A stretch of 64,000 nt of DNA, taken from assembly GCA_050257855.1 (NCBI GenBank), contig JBLMXQ010000133.1, positions 51,651 through 115,650 of the forward strand, given 5' to 3'. A program made the translations under genes and the position numbers. The notes under the pieces were generated by a model. It ran no database searches and had not been told where the DNA came from. It saw only the letters and a list, made by a program, of their open reading frames with translations. Positions 1,688 through 40,053 of the stretch are shown here, in pieces. Numbering within the stretch: the stretch's first letter is position 1; each line of letters starts with the position of its first letter. This DNA comes from Betaproteobacteria bacterium. Lineage in GTDB: Bacteria > Acidobacteriota > Vicinamibacteria > Vicinamibacterales > CAVVIG01.

Positions 1688-1785
1688 ACACGTCGCGCCG
1701 ATGAACGCGCTGGCGGCCGGGCGCGAGGGAGACGGAGACGGCGCTGGCAATGGCGCTGTTTGACCTCAGCACAGGAGCCACACCT

Positions 1786-2184
1786 ATGGCCGACCATGAC
1801 ACCGAGTCCATCAGCGGGCTGATACACAGCATCCTGGAAGACGCGCGCGGCCTGATTCGCGAGGAGATCGGACTGGCGCGCGCCGAAATTCGTGAAGAGT
1901 TCTCGAACATCCAGACGGCCGGGATTGCGTTCGGCGCGGCGGCGCTCGCGGCGTTCATCGGTGCGCTCCTGCTGTGCGGCGCCATCGGCGGAGCCGTCGC
2001 CCACCTCCTGCGCTGGCCGCCGTGGACCGGCTACGGCATCGTCGCGGTGCTGCTGCTCGGGAGTGCGTTTCTGCTGGTGCGCTACGGGAGACGGCGGCTC
2101 GCTGACGTTCGCGGTCTTCCGGTGACGACCGGGACCATCAAGGAGAACCTGGCGTGGATGCAGAGCAAGTCCGCCGGGAAATGA
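1786..2184 (+). CDS. Holin-X / phage-holin-3_6-like small membrane protein
   Basis: ATG 1786 lies 8 nt after AGGAG (1773-1777). An amphipathic N-terminus (LIREEIGLARAEIREE) is followed by two TM helices, the pattern of the putative Holin-X family. Assigned by eye. Confidence 0.55.
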   Translation: MADHDTESISGLIHSILEDARGLIREEIGLARAEIREEFSNIQTAGIAFGAAALAAFIGALLLCGAIGGAVAHLLRWPPWTGYGIVAVLLLGSAFLLVRYGRRRLADVRGLPVTTGTIKENLAWMQSKSAGK

Positions 2185-2241
2185 AGATCGCCAGGGCGTC
2201 GATCGATCGCCGGCGGGAGGCCGTGATGCGGCGCGGGCGGA

Positions 2242-2679
2242 TTACCAGCTGTTGAGGGCGAGGGCGGAATCGAGGCCGGGCAGATCGGCTCCCGCCGTGT
2301 GCACCGCCCGGGCGAACCCGTCGGCGACCGATTCGAGCGTATCGGCCTGGGCGGAGGCCTCGTAATCCTCGATGACGCGGAGCGGGTTGTTGAATTTCAT
2401 CGCTACCTGATATTGCGGGCCTGCCGAGGCGAGAGCCGTCAGCTGGCATCGCACGACCCGTCCCCGGAGCCGCTGAGAGGCGTCGGCCATCAGAATCTCG
2501 AGCTGGCCCTCGCTGCCCGGCCGCAGTCGCTGCCCGCAATCGAACAGGATTCCTCCGCTCGAGAGATTGATCACCTGCACCGTCTCGGAGGCCACGCGGG
2601 CACCGATGATCTGCGGCAGCTCGTTCAGCGGCCGTCGGGGAGACGATCGGCGGTCGGACGGATCCTTCAGAACCCCCAT
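2242..2679 (-). CDS. PilZ domain protein (c-di-GMP receptor candidate)
   Basis: RSSPR (RxxxR) is followed about 25 aa later by NLSSGG ((D/N)xSxxG). The start overlaps the stop of the upstream PAS gene by 13 nt. Confidence 0.7.
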   Translation of the reverse strand: MGVLKDPSDRRSSPRRPLNELPQIIGARVASETVQVINLSSGGILFDCGQRLRPGSEGQLEILMADASQRLRGRVVRCQLTALASAGPQYQVAMKFNNPLRVIEDYEASAQADTLESVADGFARAVHTAGADLPGLDSALALNSW

Positions 2680-4100
2680 TGCATCTCTCCATGTGTGTCT
2701 TGAGGCGGCGTTTCCCGACCGACCGTTTCGGTGGGCGTTTTCGGATCGACGGGCGATTCCCCGGTGATGGTGTCCCCGGCAGGTTTCTCCCGGGCGGACA
2801 CGTCTGCGAGCGATGCTTCCTGGCCCGGCGTCTCCAGGACCGACGTCTCATGAACAGGCGTCAGTTGAACGGAGTATTCCTGGAGGCGTATCTCCCGGAA
2901 GGGCAGCGCCTCGCCGCACGTCGTCGCCGCTTCCGGATCGGCCGGCGCGTGCGCGTCGGATTCCGTACGGATCTCTTCCACGTTCCCGCAGTCGTCGACC
3001 AGCCGCTCCACGCGGGCGCTCACGGCCTGCAGCGAGCCGAGGAGGCCGGCCAGTTTGCCCTGCCACTGCCTGCGCTGGTCGATGGCCTGCTCGACGCGCG
3101 TCCGTTCCGCCTCGCGGATACGCTCGATCTCTTCCTGGATGGCGAGCTGCGCTTCGGCCGTGCGGGCGAGCTCGTCTTCCAGCTCCCGGATATCCTGACG
3201 GAACTGTTCGCGCTCGCGCTGATGGCCCCGCTCCGCCTCTTCGAGCCTGATCCGGGACGTCTCGCGCTCCGCCGTCAGCTCCGCGGACAGGGCCGCCTCC
3301 CGGTGTTCGAGCTGGCCTACCTTTATTCGCAGCGCCTCGGCTTCGCCGACGAGCGCTTCGCGTTCGGCAGCCAGCGCCCCGTGTTCGGCAACCAGCGCTT
3401 CGCGCTCGAGCCGCCACTGGTTCGCCGCCTCTGCGTGCTCCGCCTCGGCGTCGATCAGTGCAGCCCGCATCCGATTCCGCGTCTCGCGAAGCGTGTCGCC
3501 GATCGTCTGCTGTTCGGCCTTGATTCTCGCGGAGAGCCGATCGCATTCCGCCCTGGACTCTCCGAGCGCCTGTTCCAGACCCGTGCGCTCGGCGATGTGC
3601 TGCGCCCGCACGGCGTCGGCCTGTTCGTGCATCTGCCGCAGCGCGGCGTTCAGACGCTCGCGATCGGTCACGTCCCAGGTCGCCCCGAGAAACGCTGCAG
3701 GCGCCACGCCTTCACGCGCGAGAGGAACCGCATGGGTCTCGACGGCGCATCTGGCGCCGTCCGGCTTCACGAGCGCATATTCGAGGGTGCCCGCCTTGCC
3801 GCGACAGACCTCCTCGACGAAGGCTCGGAACCGAGCGCGGTCCGGCGGTGCGAGGTGCGTCTCCAGCGTCTGGCCCAGGACCTGATCGAGCCGCCCAGCG
3901 CCGAGCAGGGCCATGGCGGAGCGATTCGCGGCCAGGATCCGGCCATCCGCATCGGCCAGCACGATGCTGACGGGCGCGGACTCGATGATCATTCTCAGGC
4001 GGAGCTCCACTGGTCCCGCGGTGGGCGCCGCTGTTTCATGACGGCCGCCGGCCGCCTCGTCGCGTTGAAGTTCGTGAACAGGGCTCATCGGTCGCACCAT
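2667..4100 (-). CDS. PAS domain protein with long coiled-coil and Pro/Thr/Glu-rich tail
   Basis: N-terminal PAS-like block (IIESAPVSIVLADADGRILAANRSAMALLG ... GATWDVTDRERL). It is followed by about 230 aa of heptad-like E/R/A/L-rich sequence. Co-oriented with and overlapping the PilZ gene. Confidence 0.7.
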   Translation of the reverse strand: MVRPMSPVHELQRDEAAGGRHETAAPTAGPVELRLRMIIESAPVSIVLADADGRILAANRSAMALLGAGRLDQVLGQTLETHLAPPDRARFRAFVEEVCRGKAGTLEYALVKPDGARCAVETHAVPLAREGVAPAAFLGATWDVTDRERLNAALRQMHEQADAVRAQHIAERTGLEQALGESRAECDRLSARIKAEQQTIGDTLRETRNRMRAALIDAEAEHAEAANQWRLEREALVAEHGALAAEREALVGEAEALRIKVGQLEHREAALSAELTAERETSRIRLEEAERGHQREREQFRQDIRELEDELARTAEAQLAIQEEIERIREAERTRVEQAIDQRRQWQGKLAGLLGSLQAVSARVERLVDDCGNVEEIRTESDAHAPADPEAATTCGEALPFREIRLQEYSVQLTPVHETSVLETPGQEASLADVSAREKPAGDTITGESPVDPKTPTETVGRETPPQDTHGEMQWGF

Positions 4101-4594
4101 CCCGAGCTTTTATCGGCACCGCCGTGCACAGGGACCAGCCGTATCCATTCTCATCGGCCCACTATTCGACATGACTCGAGACGACTCTAGAGCAATTATA
4201 CGCGCGCTGTGGCAATCCCGGCAGAATTTTTTTTCGCGGACGGGACTATTGGGCGGCATGTCCTGTTTCGGAACAGTGCCAACGCCAGCTTGTGCAAGAA
4301 CGCTGCATACGCATCCCGCGGCGATTGTCTGCGTGCGGCCGGCGTCCGCGGGGCACCCCGGTCGCTGCCGCGAGCCGGTGGATCGATCGACGGGCGCGCG
4401 ACGGGGCTCCCCAAAATATTTTGAATAGAAACTAAATTGATCCATGCTGGTTCGCGGCGGCGCCGGCGCCCCTTCGTCTTGGGCGGAGAGCCATCTGCAC
4501 GCGGCTGCGCTCGTCAGCGTTCGCCCGTCGCGGAGCGGACGCACAAAAGTCTTCCCCGCGGAAGATTTGGTCTCGACAGTTTTGTCACGTCGTC

Positions 4595-6007
4595 GTGTCG
4601 CGTTCAGCAGCTCTACCTTATGGTAGCCTTCGTACTGCAGACGTCATGGCGTTCCCCCACGTCCATTACGCCGCCGAGAGCCCGCCGCAGTACGTACTGC
4701 TGGCGAGCGATGACCTGGCGCAGGCCGCGAAATGGCTCGCGGCTATCGGAGAAACCGGCGCGGAGATTCGCATCGCTCACGACGGCGAACGCGGCCTCGA
4801 GATTCTCGCCCGTACCGGCGCTCCGATCCTTCTCATCACCGATCTGGCCCTGCCCAACAAGGACGGCTTCGCGCTCGCCGAAGCGCTGCGTCAGCGCAGC
4901 GGACCAGACACCTCGATCCTCATCGGCGTGTCGCGGTGTCGCGAGCTGCTGGACCGCGCCCGCGCGCGACGCGATCTCGGCTTCGCGGCCGTGCTGTCCG
5001 CCTCGGACGTCGATGCGCTGGGCGTGGCCGTCCGGCGCGCGCTCCGGTCCATCCGCGTTCCCGCGCAGCCGCAGGCCGTCGTCTCGCCGGCGTCGGATCG
5101 ATCGGCGGTCGAGTCCGTGATGCGCGAGATCGCCGACGAAGCGGTGCGCCTCACGCGCGTCCCCGGCGTGGTGCTGTATCTGCAGGCCGGTTCCTCCGAG
5201 CGATTCCGAGCGAACCTCACCTGGGTCTCCGAGAAGGACAGGCGATCGCCGCTGTCGACCGCGCACGTGTTCCGCACGATGGTCGAGTCGGTTCGCGGCA
5301 TCGTCGCCACGGCGATTCCCGGCGAGCAGCACGGCAAGGCGATCGGCGTCCTCTGTGTGTTCGATATCGGACCGCTCGCGCTCGGCGCGCGCGAGATCGA
5401 CGCCCTTCGCGATCTGGCGGGTCGCGCCGGACGGAGGCTGCAGCAACTGGTCGAGAGGGCGGTTCCGGAGCGCCACGAGTTCTCGCTCGCGCCCTCGCCG
5501 TCGCTGCCGCCGACCGACATCGCGGCGCTCTCGCGCCTGGCTCTCGCCGACCCGCTCACCGGCCTGGCCAACCGCCGGGGTGGGGAACTGTCCATCGATC
5601 GGGAAGTCGCGCGCGCCCGCCGGGAGGGCCGTCCCCTGAGCGTGCTCTTCCTCGACGTGGATCGGTTCAAGATCATCAACGACGTGGGCGGTCATCTTCT
5701 CGGCGATCACGTCCTGCGGGGAGTGAGCGAGACGCTGACGCGCGTGCTCAGACGTTCGGATCTCGCGATTCGCTGGGGTGGGGAGGAGTTCGTCGTCATC
5801 CTGCCGAACGTCCGGCTGCAGGAGGCGCGGCGCGTGGCCGAGCGGGTCCGCGTCGCGATGCAGGACATCCAGCTCGACAGCTCCCGCGTGACCGTCTCGG
5901 GGGGTGTCGCCGAAATGACCGAGGACGAAGACTTCACGAGCGTCCTCAAGCGCGCCGACGATCAGCTTCGGGCGGCCAAACAGCAGGGTCGAAACCGGAT
6001 CTTCTGA
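4595..6007 (+). CDS. Receiver-like / GAF-like / GGDEF diguanylate cyclase (GGEEF)
   Basis: LLASDD ... ILLITDLALPNKDGFAL is receiver-like. The C-terminal part is LSVLFLDVDRFKIINDVGGHLLGD ... RRSDLAIRWGGEEFVVIL ... ADDQLRAAKQQGRNR. The start is uncertain (GTG 4595 or ATG 4646). Confidence 0.8.
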   Translation: MSRSAALPYGSLRTADVMAFPHVHYAAESPPQYVLLASDDLAQAAKWLAAIGETGAEIRIAHDGERGLEILARTGAPILLITDLALPNKDGFALAEALRQRSGPDTSILIGVSRCRELLDRARARRDLGFAAVLSASDVDALGVAVRRALRSIRVPAQPQAVVSPASDRSAVESVMREIADEAVRLTRVPGVVLYLQAGSSERFRANLTWVSEKDRRSPLSTAHVFRTMVESVRGIVATAIPGEQHGKAIGVLCVFDIGPLALGAREIDALRDLAGRAGRRLQQLVERAVPERHEFSLAPSPSLPPTDIAALSRLALADPLTGLANRRGGELSIDREVARARREGRPLSVLFLDVDRFKIINDVGGHLLGDHVLRGVSETLTRVLRRSDLAIRWGGEEFVVILPNVRLQEARRVAERVRVAMQDIQLDSSRVTVSGGVAEMTEDEDFTSVLKRADDQLRAAKQQGRNRIF

Positions 6008-36040: not shown

Positions 36041-37669
36041 GTGGCCCACAAACATCTGCTCGTGCAGTCCGCGGCCCGAGAAAAGATTCTGCGGGGCGCG
36101 CTGGCGCTGGCCGACGCCGTGCGGGTCACTCTGGGCCCGAAGTCGAAGTGCGTGCTGATCGAGAAGAAGTGGGGCCGTCCGATCGTCTGCAACGACGGCG
36201 TGACCATCGCGCGCGAGTTCGAGCTCGAGGACCACGAGGAGAATCTCGGCGCACAGGTGATCCGGCAGGCGGCCGAGCGCACCGGTGAGCTGGTCGGCGA
36301 CGGCACGACGACCTCGACGCTGATCGCCGCCTCGATCTTCCGCGAAGGCGTCAGGAACATCGCGGCCGGGGCGAGCGCGATCGAGCTGAAGCGCGGCCTC
36401 GACCGCGGCCTGCAGGCGGTCGTGTCCCGCCTCAAGGAGCTGTCGCGACCCGTAGCCGACCGACGGCAGCGCGTGCAGGTGGCGACGATCTCGGCCCACA
36501 ACGACCAGACGATCGGCGAAATCGTCGCCGACGCGCTGGAAAAGGTCGGCGCCGAGGGCACGACCTCAGTCGAGGAGGCGAAGGGCACCGAGACGACCGT
36601 CGAGGTCGTCGAGGGGATGCGACTCGATCGCGGCTATCTGTCGCCCTATTTCATCACCGACGCCGAGAAGATGAGGGCCGTCCTCGACGAACCGGCCGTG
36701 CTCCTCTACGAGAAGAAGATCAGCACGATGACGGACTTGCTGCCGCTGCTCGAGCAGATCGCGAAGAGCGGCCAGGCGCTCCTCGTCGTCGCCGACGACG
36801 TCGAAGGCGATGCCCTGGCAACGCTCGTCGTCAACAAGGTTCGGGGCATCCTGCCGTGCGTGGCCGTCAAGGCGCCGGGTTATGGCGACCGCAGGCGCGC
36901 GATGCTCGAGGATCTGGCGATCCTCACGGGCGGCCGGCTGATTGCCGAGGAGCTGGGCGTCAAGCTGGCGAGCGTGACGCCGGACGACCTCGGACATGCC
37001 AGGCGCGTCGTCGCCGACAAGGAGACGACGACCATCGTCGGCGGCGCCGGCGGGAAGGCGGCGATCGACGGGCGCGCCAGCGAAATCCGGGCGCAGATCA
37101 AAACCGCCACGTCCGATTACGACCGCGAGAAGCTCGAAGAGCGGCTCGCGAAGCTGACCGGGGGCGTCGCCGTGATCCGGGTCGGTGCGCCGTCGGAAGC
37201 CGAGCTGAAGAACCGGCGCGAGGCCTTCGACGACGCGATCAGCGCGACGAAAGCGGCGATGGCGGAAGGGATCGTGCCCGGCGGCGGGCTCGCGCTCCTG
37301 CGCGCCATCGACGCGGTCGAGCGCGACGCGGCCGCCTGCAGCGGCGACGAGCGGACCGGCGTGCTGATTCTCGAGCGCGCGCTCGAGGCGCCGACGCGGC
37401 AGATCGCCGAGAACTCCGGCTGGGACGGCGGCGTTGTCGTCGACCGGATGCGCAGCGGCAGCGGCGCGTACGGATTCGACGCGGGCCGGGGCACCTACGT
37501 GGATCTCGTCGAGGCCGGCATCGTCGATCCGACGAAGGTCGTACGGGTGGCTCTCGAGAACGCGGTGTCGGTTGCCAGCGTTCTCCTGCTGACGGAAGCG
37601 ACGCTCACCGAGGTTCCCGAGGCGAAGCACGAGATGCACGACATGGCGGAGTCGGCGGAAAGCGCTTGA
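36041..37669 (+). CDS. groEL: Chaperonin GroEL paralog (no adjacent groES)
   Basis: GTG 36041 lies 7 nt after [21 protein letters not shown] ... [13 protein letters not shown] ... GDGTTTSTL ... [25 protein letters not shown] ... [12 protein letters not shown] ... [10 protein letters not shown]. The C-terminus ends [16 protein letters not shown], not a GGM repeat. Confidence 0.9.
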
Positions 37670-37683
37670 AGTCGACGCACGGC

Positions 37684-37712
37684 TTGACAACGGGGGAGAG
37701 GAGGCGTATTCG
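37684..37712 (+). promoter_or_regulatory. Promoter-like element TTGACA-N17-TATTCG inside the groEL/hsp20 spacer
   Basis: Perfect -35 hexamer at 37684-37689, 15 nt after the groEL stop. 17-nt spacer. The -10 matches 3 of 6 positions. Confidence 0.3.
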
Positions 37713-37749
37713 TAAATGTAGCCACGCCACTCCAGACGTGGAGGTTCTC

Positions 37750-37794
37750 ATGAGCGAACCGCCGGGCTGGCAGGGCGTGCGTCGCGACCGGTAG
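37750..37794 (+). other. Candidate 14-codon small ORF (MSEPPGWQGVRRDR) with strong Shine-Dalgarno
   Basis: GGAGG at 37740-37744, a 5-nt spacer, ATG 37750, TAG 37792-37794. No homology is inferable. Confidence 0.25.
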
Positions 37795-37911
37795 AAGAAC
37801 AATCGTCAGACCGATCCGACGTGCGCGAGCGATGACGCACGACAATCGACGTCGACAGAATCACTAAGAAGATCCAGGCTCCTGCCTGGAGGCGTGTTCA
37901 ACACGCACGAG

Positions 37912-37950
37912 ACGCCCGAATCCCGAGCGCCCGCTCGGGACCGGGCGTTT
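37912..37950 (+). terminator. Rho-independent-type terminator (two-tier GC stem followed by TTT)
   Basis: ACGCCCG-aat-CCCGAGCG-cc-CGCTCGGG-ac-CGGGCGT then TTcctt. Only the plus strand has the T-run. Confidence 0.45.
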
Positions 37951-37961
37951 CCTTCGTCAGG

Positions 37962-38528
37962 CTACTTCTTCCCTGACGAGCCTTCGCCGATCTCGAGACG
38001 CCGCCCCCGCCGCACCTGCTCGGGCGGCGCCGGCATGGTGATTTCGAGCACGCCGTCCCCGAACTTCGCTTTCGCCTGATCGGTCATCGCGCCCTCAGGC
38101 AGCGGGATCACACGATAGAAACTGCCGTAGCTGCGCTCGGACCGATACACACCCTCGCGCTCTTCTTCGTGCTCGCGCCTGCGCTCGCCCTGGATCGTGA
38201 TGGAGTCGTCGGTGACGTCGACCGACACGTCGTCCTTGCCGAGGCCTGGAAGGTCGGCGCGCACAACCAGTTCATTGTTGCGGTGGAAGATCTCGACTTC
38301 CGGCGCCCAGGCCTGCAGTTCGGTGCCCGCCCTGCGCCACGGGGAGCGGAGCAGGCTGCCCGCCCGCGGAGCCATCAGCCCGCGGCCGACGCCGAAGTCG
38401 TCGAACACGCGGTCCATCTCGTCGACGAAACGCTCGAGCATGCGGAACGGGCCCGCGTCCAGGAATGGATCCCTGCGAGCGAGGCCGCGCTGCTCCCGCT
38501 GAGCCACATCGGTGCGTTTCTCGGCCAT
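37962..38528 (-). CDS. Small heat-shock protein, Hsp20/alpha-crystallin family
   Basis: The start is taken at MAEKRTD (GGAGGA lies 7 nt upstream). WAPEVEIFHRNNELVVRADLPGLGKDDVSVDVTDDSITIQGER ... GSFYRVIPLPEGA ... AKFGDGVLEITMP. Confidence 0.9.
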   Translation of the reverse strand: MAEKRTDVAQREQRGLARRDPFLDAGPFRMLERFVDEMDRVFDDFGVGRGLMAPRAGSLLRSPWRRAGTELQAWAPEVEIFHRNNELVVRADLPGLGKDDVSVDVTDDSITIQGERRREHEEEREGVYRSERSYGSFYRVIPLPEGAMTDQAKAKFGDGVLEITMPAPPEQVRRGRRLEIGEGSSGKK

Positions 38529-38566: not shown

Positions 38567-38595
38567 TCGAGGGATTCAGGCGGCCGTCGTGCAAG
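38567..38595 (-). promoter_or_regulatory. Heat-shock-type promoter candidate (CTTGCA-N16-CCCTCGA) upstream of hsp20
   Basis: On the minus strand: CTTGCA (38595-38590), 16 nt, then CCCTCGA (38573-38567), 38 nt before the ATG. It resembles the CTTGAA / CCCCATnT sigma-32 pattern. Confidence 0.3.
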
Positions 38596-38713
38596 CGGTG
38601 AGCCATGGCGACCGGGCCCTGAGGCGCGGCAACGCCGGAGTCGACGCCGTGGCGCTGTCAGGTTGCCGTGCAGTGTGCGAGTGAAAGGTGTAGCAGGGGC
38701 CTACGCGCGTGAC

Positions 38714-39367
38714 TCACTCGGCCGCTGCTCGAGGCTCACGATCCGCGAAGCGCGGACCCGCGGTCGTGGAGAGCGTCGTGAAGGTCGCTCCGGCGTCGCG
38801 CATGGCCGCCATCGCTCTGCTCACGTCGCCAGGATGAACGTCGATGCCGGCAATGCCGTCCGTCAACACGGTGGCGTCGAGCCCGGCACGCCGCGCGTCG
38901 AGGACCGACGTCCGGACGCAGTAGTCGGTCGTGAGACCGCCGATATAGAGATGCCCGATCCCCCGCTTCCGAAGATCCTCGAGGAGCGGCTTCCCGGACT
39001 CCGTGCGTCCGTCGAACGCCGAATAGCCGGGCCGCGTCGGGTCGTCGCCCTTGCTGATCAGGATCGCCGACGCCGGCAGGTGAAGGTCCGGATGGAACGC
39101 CGCGCCCTCGGAGTGCTGAACGCAGTGAGGCGGCCACTCGCCGCCGTACTGCTTGAAATGGCTCGTTACCGCCGGGTGCCAGTCGCGCGAGACGTAGATC
39201 GGCAGCCCCTGGTCGATCGCCGCTTCGATATACCGATTGAGCACCGGCACGACGCGATCACCTTCTGGCACGGCCAGGGAACCCCCGGGACAGAAGTCGC
39301 GCTGAACGTCGACGACCAGCAGGGCGGAGTGCGCTGCCCGTGCCCCGGGCCCGACCGGCTTTCCCAT
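38714..39367 (-). CDS. pncA: Nicotinamidase / isochorismatase-family hydrolase
   Basis: ALLVVDVQRDFCPGGSLAV ... SRDWHP ... PPHCVQHSEGA ... YIGGLTTDYCVRTSVLDA has the catalytic D, K and C pattern of PncA. Confidence 0.85.
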   Translation of the reverse strand: MGKPVGPGARAAHSALLVVDVQRDFCPGGSLAVPEGDRVVPVLNRYIEAAIDQGLPIYVSRDWHPAVTSHFKQYGGEWPPHCVQHSEGAAFHPDLHLPASAILISKGDDPTRPGYSAFDGRTESGKPLLEDLRKRGIGHLYIGGLTTDYCVRTSVLDARRAGLDATVLTDGIAGIDVHPGDVSRAMAAMRDAGATFTTLSTTAGPRFADREPRAAAE

Positions 39368-39529
39368 GGCTTTCAGGCTATCTCCGGATTCTCCGGGCTG
39401 CAACCACGACGGTCCTGACCCGCCAGGGGCCGTCTCCGCCGCCGAGAGCGCCTGCCGGATTTCCGGCACCAGCGCATCCTGGTCCCCGGCAATCTCAGAA
39501 AATCGAGCGGTTCGGGCGTATCCGTGGCC

Positions 39530-39544
39530 CGGCACGACCGTTGC
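39530..39544 (+). promoter_or_regulatory. Sigma-54-type promoter (cGGCAC-gaccg-TTGC) upstream of the Cys-rich hypothetical gene
   Basis: GGCAC-N5-TTGC. The -12 C lies 33 nt before ATG 39577, with GGAGGAG at 39567-39573. Confidence 0.55.
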
Positions 39545-39576
39545 GGTCCCTTTTTGGCACAAGCCGGAGGAGACGC

Positions 39577-39942
39577 ATGACCAGAACGATTGATTCCCGC
39601 GGGGCGGCGCACAGCGCCGAACAACTGATGGAAGCGGCAGCGGAAGGCCAGTTCTCAACCCAGGTGCTCGCCGGTCTTCTGAACGAACAGGCGCGGCATG
39701 CGTTTCTCGAGACGTGCGCTCGCATCGAGCGGACGTACACCGAAGCATGCCCGACCGTCAACGAACCGTGTCTCGCGTCGGGCTGCTCCTTGGAGGGCAC
39801 GAACGAGATTTGCCTGCAGCCGCTCCTCGCGGCGGACGGCGACTATCTGCGCGCCTGCGCGGCGGAATGGATTAAGCTGTTTCGCAGGCCCGAGAACCGC
39901 GCCGACTTCTGGCAGGCCGGTTCGCCACTGATCGAGCACTGA
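39577..39942 (+). CDS. Hypothetical 121-aa cysteine-rich protein
   Basis: Strong SD plus ATG, high GC3, and seven Cys (..LETCARIERTYTEACPTVNEPCLASGCSLEGTNEICLQ...LRACAAEW). I recognise no family. Confidence 0.55.
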   Translation: MTRTIDSRGAAHSAEQLMEAAAEGQFSTQVLAGLLNEQARHAFLETCARIERTYTEACPTVNEPCLASGCSLEGTNEICLQPLLAADGDYLRACAAEWIKLFRRPENRADFWQAGSPLIEH

Positions 39943-40034
39943 CGCGGTCCGTTCCCCGGGCGTCCGAGACTGGGCGATACTGAGGGAGGCGCGGGCGGGT
40001 GCCTCAGCCGCAGCGGTCGGCGACCGGCTGCGAT

Positions 40035-40049
40035 CGGCACGCTCATTGC
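40035..40049 (+). promoter_or_regulatory. Sigma-54-type promoter (cGGCAC-gctca-TTGC) abutting the cfa start
   Basis: GGCAC-N5-TTGC. The -12 C is at 40049, only 14 nt before ATG 40063. This would imply a nearly leaderless mRNA and argues against GTG 40054 as the start. Confidence 0.45.
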
Positions 40050-40053
40050 GCTC

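Follow-up and report, generated by a model that had tools for sequence, protein, structure and literature searches.

A putative family of structured small RNAs encoded beside hsp20 in Vicinamibacterales-type genomes

The groEL-hsp20 spacer and its predicted features

The DNA analyzed here is a 64-kb stretch of contig JBLMXQ010000133.1, referred to in its entirety as the window, in which groEL on the plus strand and hsp20 on the minus strand converge on a spacer at positions 37670-37961. A first-pass annotation had drawn attention to this spacer as an unusually long and structured one. As read from the sequence it measures 292 nt, not the 291 nt given at that time, and it is much longer, as had been claimed, than the other convergent gaps in the window, which measure -10, 9, 12, 15, 70, 90, 113 and 144 nt in a list that rests on crude gene calls based on GC content at third codon positions (GC3). 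Its GC content is also lower than that of the whole window (62.3% vs 69.2%), in agreement with the first reading. The spacer folded better than its shuffles on both strands, with z = -4.2 on the plus strand and -4.0 on the minus strand. The several stem-loops noticed initially are present, and helices P1-P4 could be defined. Neither a second copy of the spacer in the 64 kb window nor a second copy of the element in any fetched locus was found, and internal repeats of the spacer were limited to short, chance-like matches. Identity as a mobile repeat of the repetitive extragenic palindrome (REP) or miniature inverted-repeat transposable element (MITE) type was rejected, because the element is single-copy in the window and in each fetched locus.

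Comparison with relatives leads us to consider it likely that the spacer harbors a free-standing gene whose product is a structured small RNA (sRNA) of a previously undescribed family, present in soil Acidobacteriota-like (Vicinamibacterales-type) genomes; the most plausible role of this RNA would be that of a dual-function or ribosome-sensing riboregulator. To search for homologs, we fetched 88 loci, 72 of which were obtained via hsp20 homology and comprise 5 species-representative genomes (all Vicinamibacterales or Acidobacteriota metagenome-assembled genomes, MAGs) and 67 metagenome contigs. A search of all loci using nhmmer, with the spacer alone as the query, identified a homologous stretch of ~230-280 nt in ~24 loci, with E-values down to 5e-17. 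The element was delimited in 21 distinct full-length metagenomic loci and in 2 further loci truncated by contig ends, the copies being 170-270 nt long. A covariance model built from 20 sequences (R1) scored the 21 full-length copies at 124-185 bits (E 1e-33 to 1e-50) and matched the window at 37714-37956 with 140 bits (E = 3e-37). The copy in locus L083, which was outside the R1 seed, still received 150.7 bits; its lineage (L083-L087) had been recovered through another hsp20 homolog. No further full-length R1 matches were found in the 372 kb of loci plus the window. The predicted features are as follows, with fractions referring to the full-length copies:

37683..37689, plus strand: -35-like motif CTTGACA; TTGACA (37684-37689) invariant in 21/21, the leading C in 20/21
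37707..37712, plus strand: -10-like hexamer TATTCG; family consensus TAYnnG, then TA; separated from TTGACA by 17 nt in 20 copies (18 nt in L017)
37720..37954, plus strand: predicted small RNA of ~235 nt, its 5′ end put 7-9 nt after the -10-like hexamer and its 3′ end at the T-run
37722..37741, plus strand: P1, a 5′ hairpin CCACG/CGTGG (helix 1, 89% paired), the 3′ arm of which overlaps the first two G of the Shine-Dalgarno (SD) sequence
37740..37744, plus strand: SD sequence GGAGG, 5 nt before the ATG here and 5-7 nt in 16/21 copies, with a variable spacer
37750..37794, plus strand: mini-ORF (open reading frame) MSEPPGWQGVRRDR, 14 codons and TAG (37792-37794); ATG invariant in 21/21
37759..37767, plus strand: Pro-Pro-Gly codons CCG CCG GGC; CCR-CCG-GRC in frame with the ATG in 21/21
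37775..37826, plus strand: P2, hairpin GCGTGCGTCG ... CGACGTGCGC, present in every copy; three pairs with compensatory changes
37827..37872, plus strand: purine-rich linker, variable in length and sequence, with an insertion in L027; A-rich before P3 in many copies
37873..37890, plus strand: P3, TCCAGGC TCCT GCCTGGA, 7 bp, 99% of cells paired, two compensatory pairs; loops UCCU, UCUC, UCUU, UCCC and UCGU
37892..37906, plus strand: P4, GCGTGT TCA ACACGC, in all copies with 5-9 bp; family form GCGUG...CACGC, compensatory GCGCAT/ATGCGC in L070
37909..37954, plus strand: P5, two-tier terminator with TTTCCTT (37948-37954); outer arms 37909-37918/37942-37951, inner arms 37921-37928/37933-37940
36041..37669, plus strand: groEL, a flank outside the small-RNA family; stop codon TGA at 37667-37669
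37962..38528, minus strand: hsp20, the convergent partner, adjoining the element in 20/21 loci; stop codon at 37962-37964 (CTA on the plus strand)

Sequence conservation across copies sets in abruptly at CTTGACA and ends at the terminal hairpin with its T-run, and the spacer between the two hexamers is fixed in length while its sequence varies. Both the TTGACA-TATTCG pair and the GGAGG-N5-ATG that opens the 14-codon ORF had been picked out in the first-pass annotation, at the coordinates listed above. Each composite motif occurs only once in the 64 kb (expected matches, 0.01 and 0.00). Neither a TTGACA nor a 14-codon ORF would be remarkable on its own, and the significance of the motifs comes from their conservation in relatives. 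The earlier suggestion of an independent transcript of about 230 nt, whether it acts as an sRNA, has a dual function or encodes a micro-protein, thus gains support, since the promoter-like motif, SD-ATG, ORF start, hairpins and terminator are conserved as a unit in 21 loci with differing upstream neighbors.

Distribution and genomic context of the element

The element lies directly downstream of an hsp20 homolog, on the opposite strand, in 20 of the 21 loci. Locus L076, a groEL-derived one, contains an intact copy with no hsp20 nearby, and the element can therefore stand away from hsp20. Among hsp20-homolog loci with enough downstream sequence, ~60% lack it. Upstream neighbors vary and include groEL, a divergent FMN reductase gene, and genes for a metallophosphoesterase, a dienelactone hydrolase, a cation ATPase and RecQ; groEL is directly upstream in this window only. 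Six groEL loci at 86-89% identity were compared: the element was absent from five of them (L075, L077, L078, L079 and L080) within the 3-10 kb fetched around groEL, and in the sixth, L076, it lies 1 kb downstream of groEL, behind two other genes. The only hsp20-retrieved locus with a convergent groEL, L042, has an unrelated spacer of 98 nt.

In one clade, characterized by a six-codon ORF, the divergent NADPH-dependent FMN reductase gene (L027 3943-4509; also in L025, L035, L049 and L052) starts ~45 nt from the -35 hexamer of the element, and the two promoters must therefore overlap. The L027 linker additionally contains clade-specific short tandem repeats (GGCTACTGAAGAACAGTGGTGGCTACTAAAAAACAGTAGGTAGC), and ~3 copies of ACCGCTGGCGGTTGAAAAAC occur upstream of hsp20 in L040 and L048.

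Two Logan contigs, L006 and L007, carry a locus 100% identical to the window and are uninformative. In a collection of 5.8 billion proteins, no Hsp20 at 78-100% identity and no GroEL at 89-100% identity was found, the nearest being a 78% Hsp20 and an 89% GroEL. A scan of viral contigs for the P3 pattern returned two hairpin matches, which were rejected as chance matches and are not the element.

Covariation of the predicted helices

We assessed the predicted helices on two alignments. In the MAFFT alignment of the whole transcript, with 36 designated base pairs, 91% of cells were paired, compared with 28-48% in slid controls, and 10 pairs showed double changes, compared with 5.3±1.3 in shuffled alignments (0/500). 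The model-derived alignment gave 93% of cells paired (slid controls, 28-46%) and 11 double-change pairs, compared with 5.4±1.3 after shuffling, where 0/500 reached the observed value, and 1-4 in slid controls. The model-derived alignment leans toward the model, whereas the whole-transcript MAFFT alignment and a separate MAFFT alignment of the 3′ domain do not; the latter agrees with the result for P3 and P5. Aligning the spacer from related genomes to look for compensatory changes had been proposed at the outset, and both sequence and structure turned out to be conserved.

The helices differ in how they are maintained. P3 and P4 are nearly invariant in sequence, the family form of P3 being UUCUGGC-UCCU-GCCAGAA. 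The base of P2 is conserved (GCGCA/TGCGC), and its upper stems are clade-specific and unrelated in sequence; the upper stem of P2 and the inner stem of P5 cannot be aligned between clades, and both fold in every copy. The outer stem of P5, ACGCCCGnn/nnCGGGCGT, comprises 10-11 pairs, one of which shows a GC-to-AU exchange in 9 copies. P1 begins ~8 nt beyond the -10-like motif and usually takes the form CCACG(T)/(A)CGTGG; it is replaced by an unrelated 8-bp hairpin in L070 and by CUUCCG/CGGAGG in one clade, and L012 has none.

The P5 terminator in relation to hsp20

The two-tier hairpin followed by T residues is located where the first-pass annotation had placed it. The accompanying statement that the T-run occurs on the plus strand only holds for this last hairpin; it does not hold for two terminator-like hairpins on the minus strand, at 37890..37873 and 37821..37804, identified by a generic scan of the window. 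Among the copies, a T-run follows P5 in ~10/21 and a weaker tail in the remainder. P5 ends ~8-20 nt from the hsp20 stop codon and is bordered by A-rich sequence on its 5′ side and T-rich sequence on its 3′ side. The same hairpin, ACGCCCGG...CCGGGCGTT, is found right after the hsp20 stop codon in L021 (3564-3612), L010 (874-911) and L065, all of which lack the rest of the element. The terminator thus seems to belong to hsp20, with the RNA gene having been added to, or lost from, an hsp20-terminator site, and the linkage to hsp20 would most simply reflect a common bidirectional terminator. A cis effect on hsp20, through 3′ overlap or transcriptional interference, is possible.

No terminator was found in the 14 nt between the groEL stop codon and the -35 hexamer. 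The groEL mRNA therefore probably reads through the element in this genome as well. The promoter motif was not common to hsp20 or groEL when their upstream regions were compared.

The mini-ORF and its Pro-Pro-Gly/Asp motif

A lack of conservation of the small ORF had been named beforehand as a refuting observation; the ATG and CCR-CCG-GRC, with one or two variable codons between them, are kept in all 21 copies. The length of the ORF varies: 14 codons in seven copies (including the window), 13 in two, six in the eight copies of one clade, and 24, 26, 26 and 31 in the others. At the conserved triplets, the only variants are CCA/CCG, which are synonymous, and GGC to GAC (Gly to Asp), which occurs in four copies (L016, L015, L066 and L083). 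With Gly or Asp at codon 6 the motif reads PPG or PPD, and both are pause motifs dependent on elongation factor P (EF-P) (PMC4140641). The small RNA probably carries a translated mini-ORF in which the only conserved residues form an EF-P-type pause motif. Within subgroups, codons 2-4 change mostly synonymously (AGC/AGT, GAA/GAG, TCA/TCG, CCA/CCG), and a 3-nt deletion in L015 keeps the frame. Of the nine copies whose ORF has 13 or 14 codons, at least seven place the stop codon, mostly TGA, in the P2 apical loop; that of the window lies in the P2 interior.

Weighing these observations, we lean slightly toward ribosomes initiating at the mini-ORF. If they do, the act of translation and the pausing would matter, not the peptide.

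Comparison with known RNA families and regulatory systems

The first reading had found no match to known RNA features, and a covariance search with Rfam 15 likewise assigned no family. At gathering scores there were no matches in the 64 kb window, and at E up to 10 nothing in the spacer rose above noise when 37400-38300 was searched; the sole match with E < 1, to RcsR1, reached 21 bits where the threshold is 60 and was located within hsp20. Ten other element loci searched at E up to 0.1 gave no match to the element. Membership in ROSE, 6S, tmRNA, SRP, RNase P, Acido-1, Acido-Lenti-1 and RcsR1 was rejected, as all were below gathering thresholds. The data therefore support a family outside Rfam 15, consisting of a conserved, delimited and structured element with the anatomy of an independent sRNA gene.

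Several known systems resemble parts of this predicted anatomy. Dual-function small RNAs include SgrS/SgrT, RNAIII/delta-haemolysin, SR1/SR1P and AzuCR. Like them, the element would be a stand-alone gene with its own promoter and intrinsic terminator and with a short SD-preceded ORF beside a conserved structured RNA; unlike them, its ORF is far shorter (6-31 codons) and keeps three conserved residues, and there is no similarity in sequence or model. DapZ and MicL are of the type of sRNAs embedded in a 3′ untranslated region (UTR) with a promoter of their own. The element similarly follows a co-directional gene in the window, L070, L023, L015 and L083, with which it would have a terminator in common, whereas the upstream gene is divergent in one clade and the promoter lies outside the upstream coding sequence. 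With ROSE and fourU thermometers the element shares a heat-shock neighborhood and a short hairpin that partly occludes the SD in most copies; it differs in lying downstream of hsp20 on the opposite strand, not in the hsp20 5′ UTR, and in having no Rfam ROSE match. P1 was rejected as an RNA thermometer because SD occlusion is not universal (the SD is free in L070, and L012 has no hairpin). Bidirectional intrinsic terminators resemble P5 in its position between convergent units and its persistence after hsp20 where the sRNA is missing; such a terminator accounts only for the last 45 nt of the spacer. Finally, the Salmonella mgtCBR and mgtA leader ORFs mgtP and mgtL contain EF-P-sensitive proline codons, pausing at which depends on EF-P and prolyl-tRNA (PMC5299641, PMC6460261). 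The mini-ORF is likewise very short and SD-preceded, with consecutive proline codons just 5′ of stem-loops; whereas mgtP and mgtL precede a same-strand gene and alternative stem-loops, the element precedes a terminator and a convergent gene, and no alternative pairing is supported.

Proposed mode of action

Taken together, the features suggest the following model for a stand-alone small RNA. Transcription would start ~7-9 nt beyond CTTGACA-N17-TAYnnG and stop at the two-tier hairpin that also closes hsp20, with groEL read-through offering a second route to the small RNA in this window. The 5′ part would serve as a ribosome-loading module, made up of a short hairpin over part of GGAGG, the AUG and Pro-Pro-Gly/Asp at codons 4-6, and would be followed by an RNA body of P2, P3, P4 and the terminator, maintained by compensatory substitutions. 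Ribosomes would load onto the mini-ORF and stall at its diprolyl motif, and a paused ribosome would shield the AUG together with the P2 5′ arm. Ribosome occupancy could then determine how the RNA body folds or how long it persists, and this body would act elsewhere. The RNA may thus have a regulatory role, either in trans or linked to hsp20.

A more specific version, which we regard as speculative and rather unlikely in its full form, is that of an "orphan leader": a free-standing RNA in which the M-x-x-P-P-G/D mini-ORF senses elongation capacity (EF-P activity, prolyl-tRNA supply or temperature), and in which pausing gates a trans-acting body or the 3′ overlap with hsp20.

A number of observations weigh against this model or parts of it. 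The promoter, the transcript ends and translation are all read from sequence. The -10-like hexamer is non-canonical and lacks the final T, and the site was not called by a generic promoter scan for that reason. With regard to strand, the minimum free energy (MFE) was better on the plus strand in only 8/20 copies, and the defined helices contain 13 G-U vs 7 A-C cells, which does not discriminate between strands. The association with hsp20 is overstated, as it arises partly by construction, 72 of the 88 loci having been retrieved via hsp20. With regard to translation, L066, L071, L011 and L017 have a degenerate SD and L012 has none; codons 2-3 change freely between clades; a hand count, with ~7 synonymous and at least 12 non-synonymous changes, does not depart significantly from neutrality; and the conservation of "CCACCGGGC" could be at the RNA level, not the peptide level. 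When a 30-nt ribosome footprint was forced to be unpaired, P3, P4 and P5 were unchanged in 21/21 predicted folds, and pausing thus had no visible effect on structure. RNAduplex against the hsp20 translation-initiation region gave z ~0 and implausible duplexes, and no conserved 9-mers complementary to the hsp20 mRNA were found outside the common terminator.

Alternative explanations

The assignment to the plus strand, which we infer from the layout of the signals, is the main uncertainty of our interpretation, and the best surviving alternative starts from it. The element could be the 3′ UTR of hsp20, a minus-strand RNA extending past the first hairpin, in which case the plus-strand promoter and SD-ATG would be coincidental. 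Such an origin would suit the position directly downstream of hsp20 in 20/21 loci, the strand symmetry of the helices, for which the MFE and G-U tests do not favor the plus strand, and the minus-strand terminator-like hairpins at 37890..37873 and 37821..37804. We nevertheless assigned the plus strand for four reasons. The hexamers flank a spacer of fixed length and variable sequence, which is a signature of promoter evolution and not of RNA. The SD-spacer-ATG likewise keeps its layout with a variable spacer. The promoter and the hairpin with T-run mark two boundaries, whereas a minus-strand RNA would have no 3′ signal or defined 3′ end at the TGTCAAG boundary, and the T-rich minus-strand tails after P3 are not conserved. 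Lastly, hsp20 has a terminator hairpin of its own, a GC hairpin ~8-20 nt after its stop codon that is retained in L021, L010 and L065 where the rest is missing, and hsp20 transcripts most likely end there. As L076 additionally has the element without hsp20, we judge the hsp20 3′ UTR explanation improbable.

Slightly less credit still is due to the idea that the locus is a micro-protein gene, with a 13-14-residue peptide (M-x-x-P-P-G-L-x-G/R-A-S...) as the product and the RNA structure as incidental. In its favor, SD, ATG and reading frame are all conserved, an ORF of 13-14 codons is kept in nine lineages, codon 7 is one of three Leu codons (CTG, TTG or CTA) in 10 of the 13 copies reading past codon 6, and G-A-S follows in most of these. 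Yet the eight-copy clade has TAG at codon 7 with the nucleotides further 3′ unchanged, L066 shows a frameshift when compared with its sister L071, and L016 and L017 no longer have the stop codon in the loop. The G-A-S codons fall on the conserved base of P2 (GCGCATC), and two thirds of the conserved sequence is found 3′ of the ORF, where it covaries as RNA. An effector role for the peptide itself is unlikely, because one clade is cut to six codons and others are frameshifted after codon 6.

About equally improbable is a leader-peptide attenuator, in which the position of the ribosome on Pro-Pro-Gly would decide whether the terminator forms and thereby the amount of antisense transcription across hsp20. 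In architecture the element matches classical attenuators, among them the EF-P-sensitive leaders mgtP and mgtL (PMC5299641, PMC6460261), hsp20 is the sole downstream gene, and ACCGGGC in the ORF is complementary in some copies to GCCCGGT in the 5′ arm of the terminator. This pairing shows no covariation, however, and is reduced to 5 bp in copies with GCCCGAC or GCCCGAA; the GGC-to-GAC variants (L016, L015, L066 and L083) break it without compensation. The terminator, a long stem of 10-11 bp plus an inner helix, stayed intact in 21/21 footprint-constrained folds, and there is no same-strand gene to be regulated, a convergent gene following the terminator in 21/21 loci.

That the spacer is only a long structured groEL 3′ UTR, an option entertained in the first-pass annotation, or a non-functional spacer is very improbable and refuted as a general explanation: although groEL transcripts probably run into the element here, with no terminator between the groEL stop (37669) and the element, groEL is upstream in this window only, the related groEL loci and L042 described above lack the element or have it at a distance, and conservation and covariation exclude a neutral spacer.

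Neighboring genes and taxonomic assignment

The encoded GroEL (542 aa) scores above the cut-off of TIGR02348 (GroEL equivalog). Identical database proteins exist for both GroEL (P0001) and Hsp20 (188 aa; P0121). The NCBI label on both identical proteins is "MAG: Betaproteobacteria bacterium". All named close relatives are Vicinamibacterales or Acidobacteriota, and the Betaproteobacteria label of the bin is therefore probably wrong.

No groES precedes groEL (36041-37669). In relatives, groEL genes of 86-89% identity adjoin genes for universal stress proteins, another hsp20, archease and RtcB (L078 10001-14299; L076 3001-5045), and the groEL neighborhood looks like a stress or RNA-repair island, not a housekeeping groESL operon. 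A sigma-54-type promoter, TGGCTCACCGCTTGCA (GG-N10-GC), is located on the minus strand at 38590-38605, ~60 nt upstream of the hsp20 start codon, and the same motif also occurs upstream of hsp20 homologs in L015, L016 and L017. This suggests that hsp20 is an enhancer-dependent small heat-shock gene, not one of the sigma-32/CIRCE type. Upstream of another hsp20 homolog, by ~200 nt, L018 contains a match to the group II intron catalytic domain (RF00029; 2727-2801, minus strand; 49 bits, above the gathering score). Elsewhere in the window, the crude GC3-based calling leaves 1688-4645 and 39251-40053 without a called gene, which may be a failure of the heuristic.

Implications

Acidobacteriota are an abundant and largely uncultured phylum of soil bacteria, and to our knowledge no small RNA has been experimentally characterized in them. 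The locus offers a well-delimited sRNA candidate with a ready covariance model and covariation across 21 distinct sequences, and it would represent a recurring, unannotated gene beside hsp20 that annotation pipelines have missed. Its unusual trait is a ribosome-binding site that is conserved and well spaced from its start codon and yet serves only a diprolyl pause motif, in an RNA with no cistron behind it. Should the mini-ORF be translated, the family would lend itself to the study of ribosome-pausing regulation detached from classical attenuation. Were the tentative "orphan leader" version to prove true, it would couple a chaperone locus to ribosome state and would exemplify a stalling-peptide sensor uncoupled from a downstream cistron.

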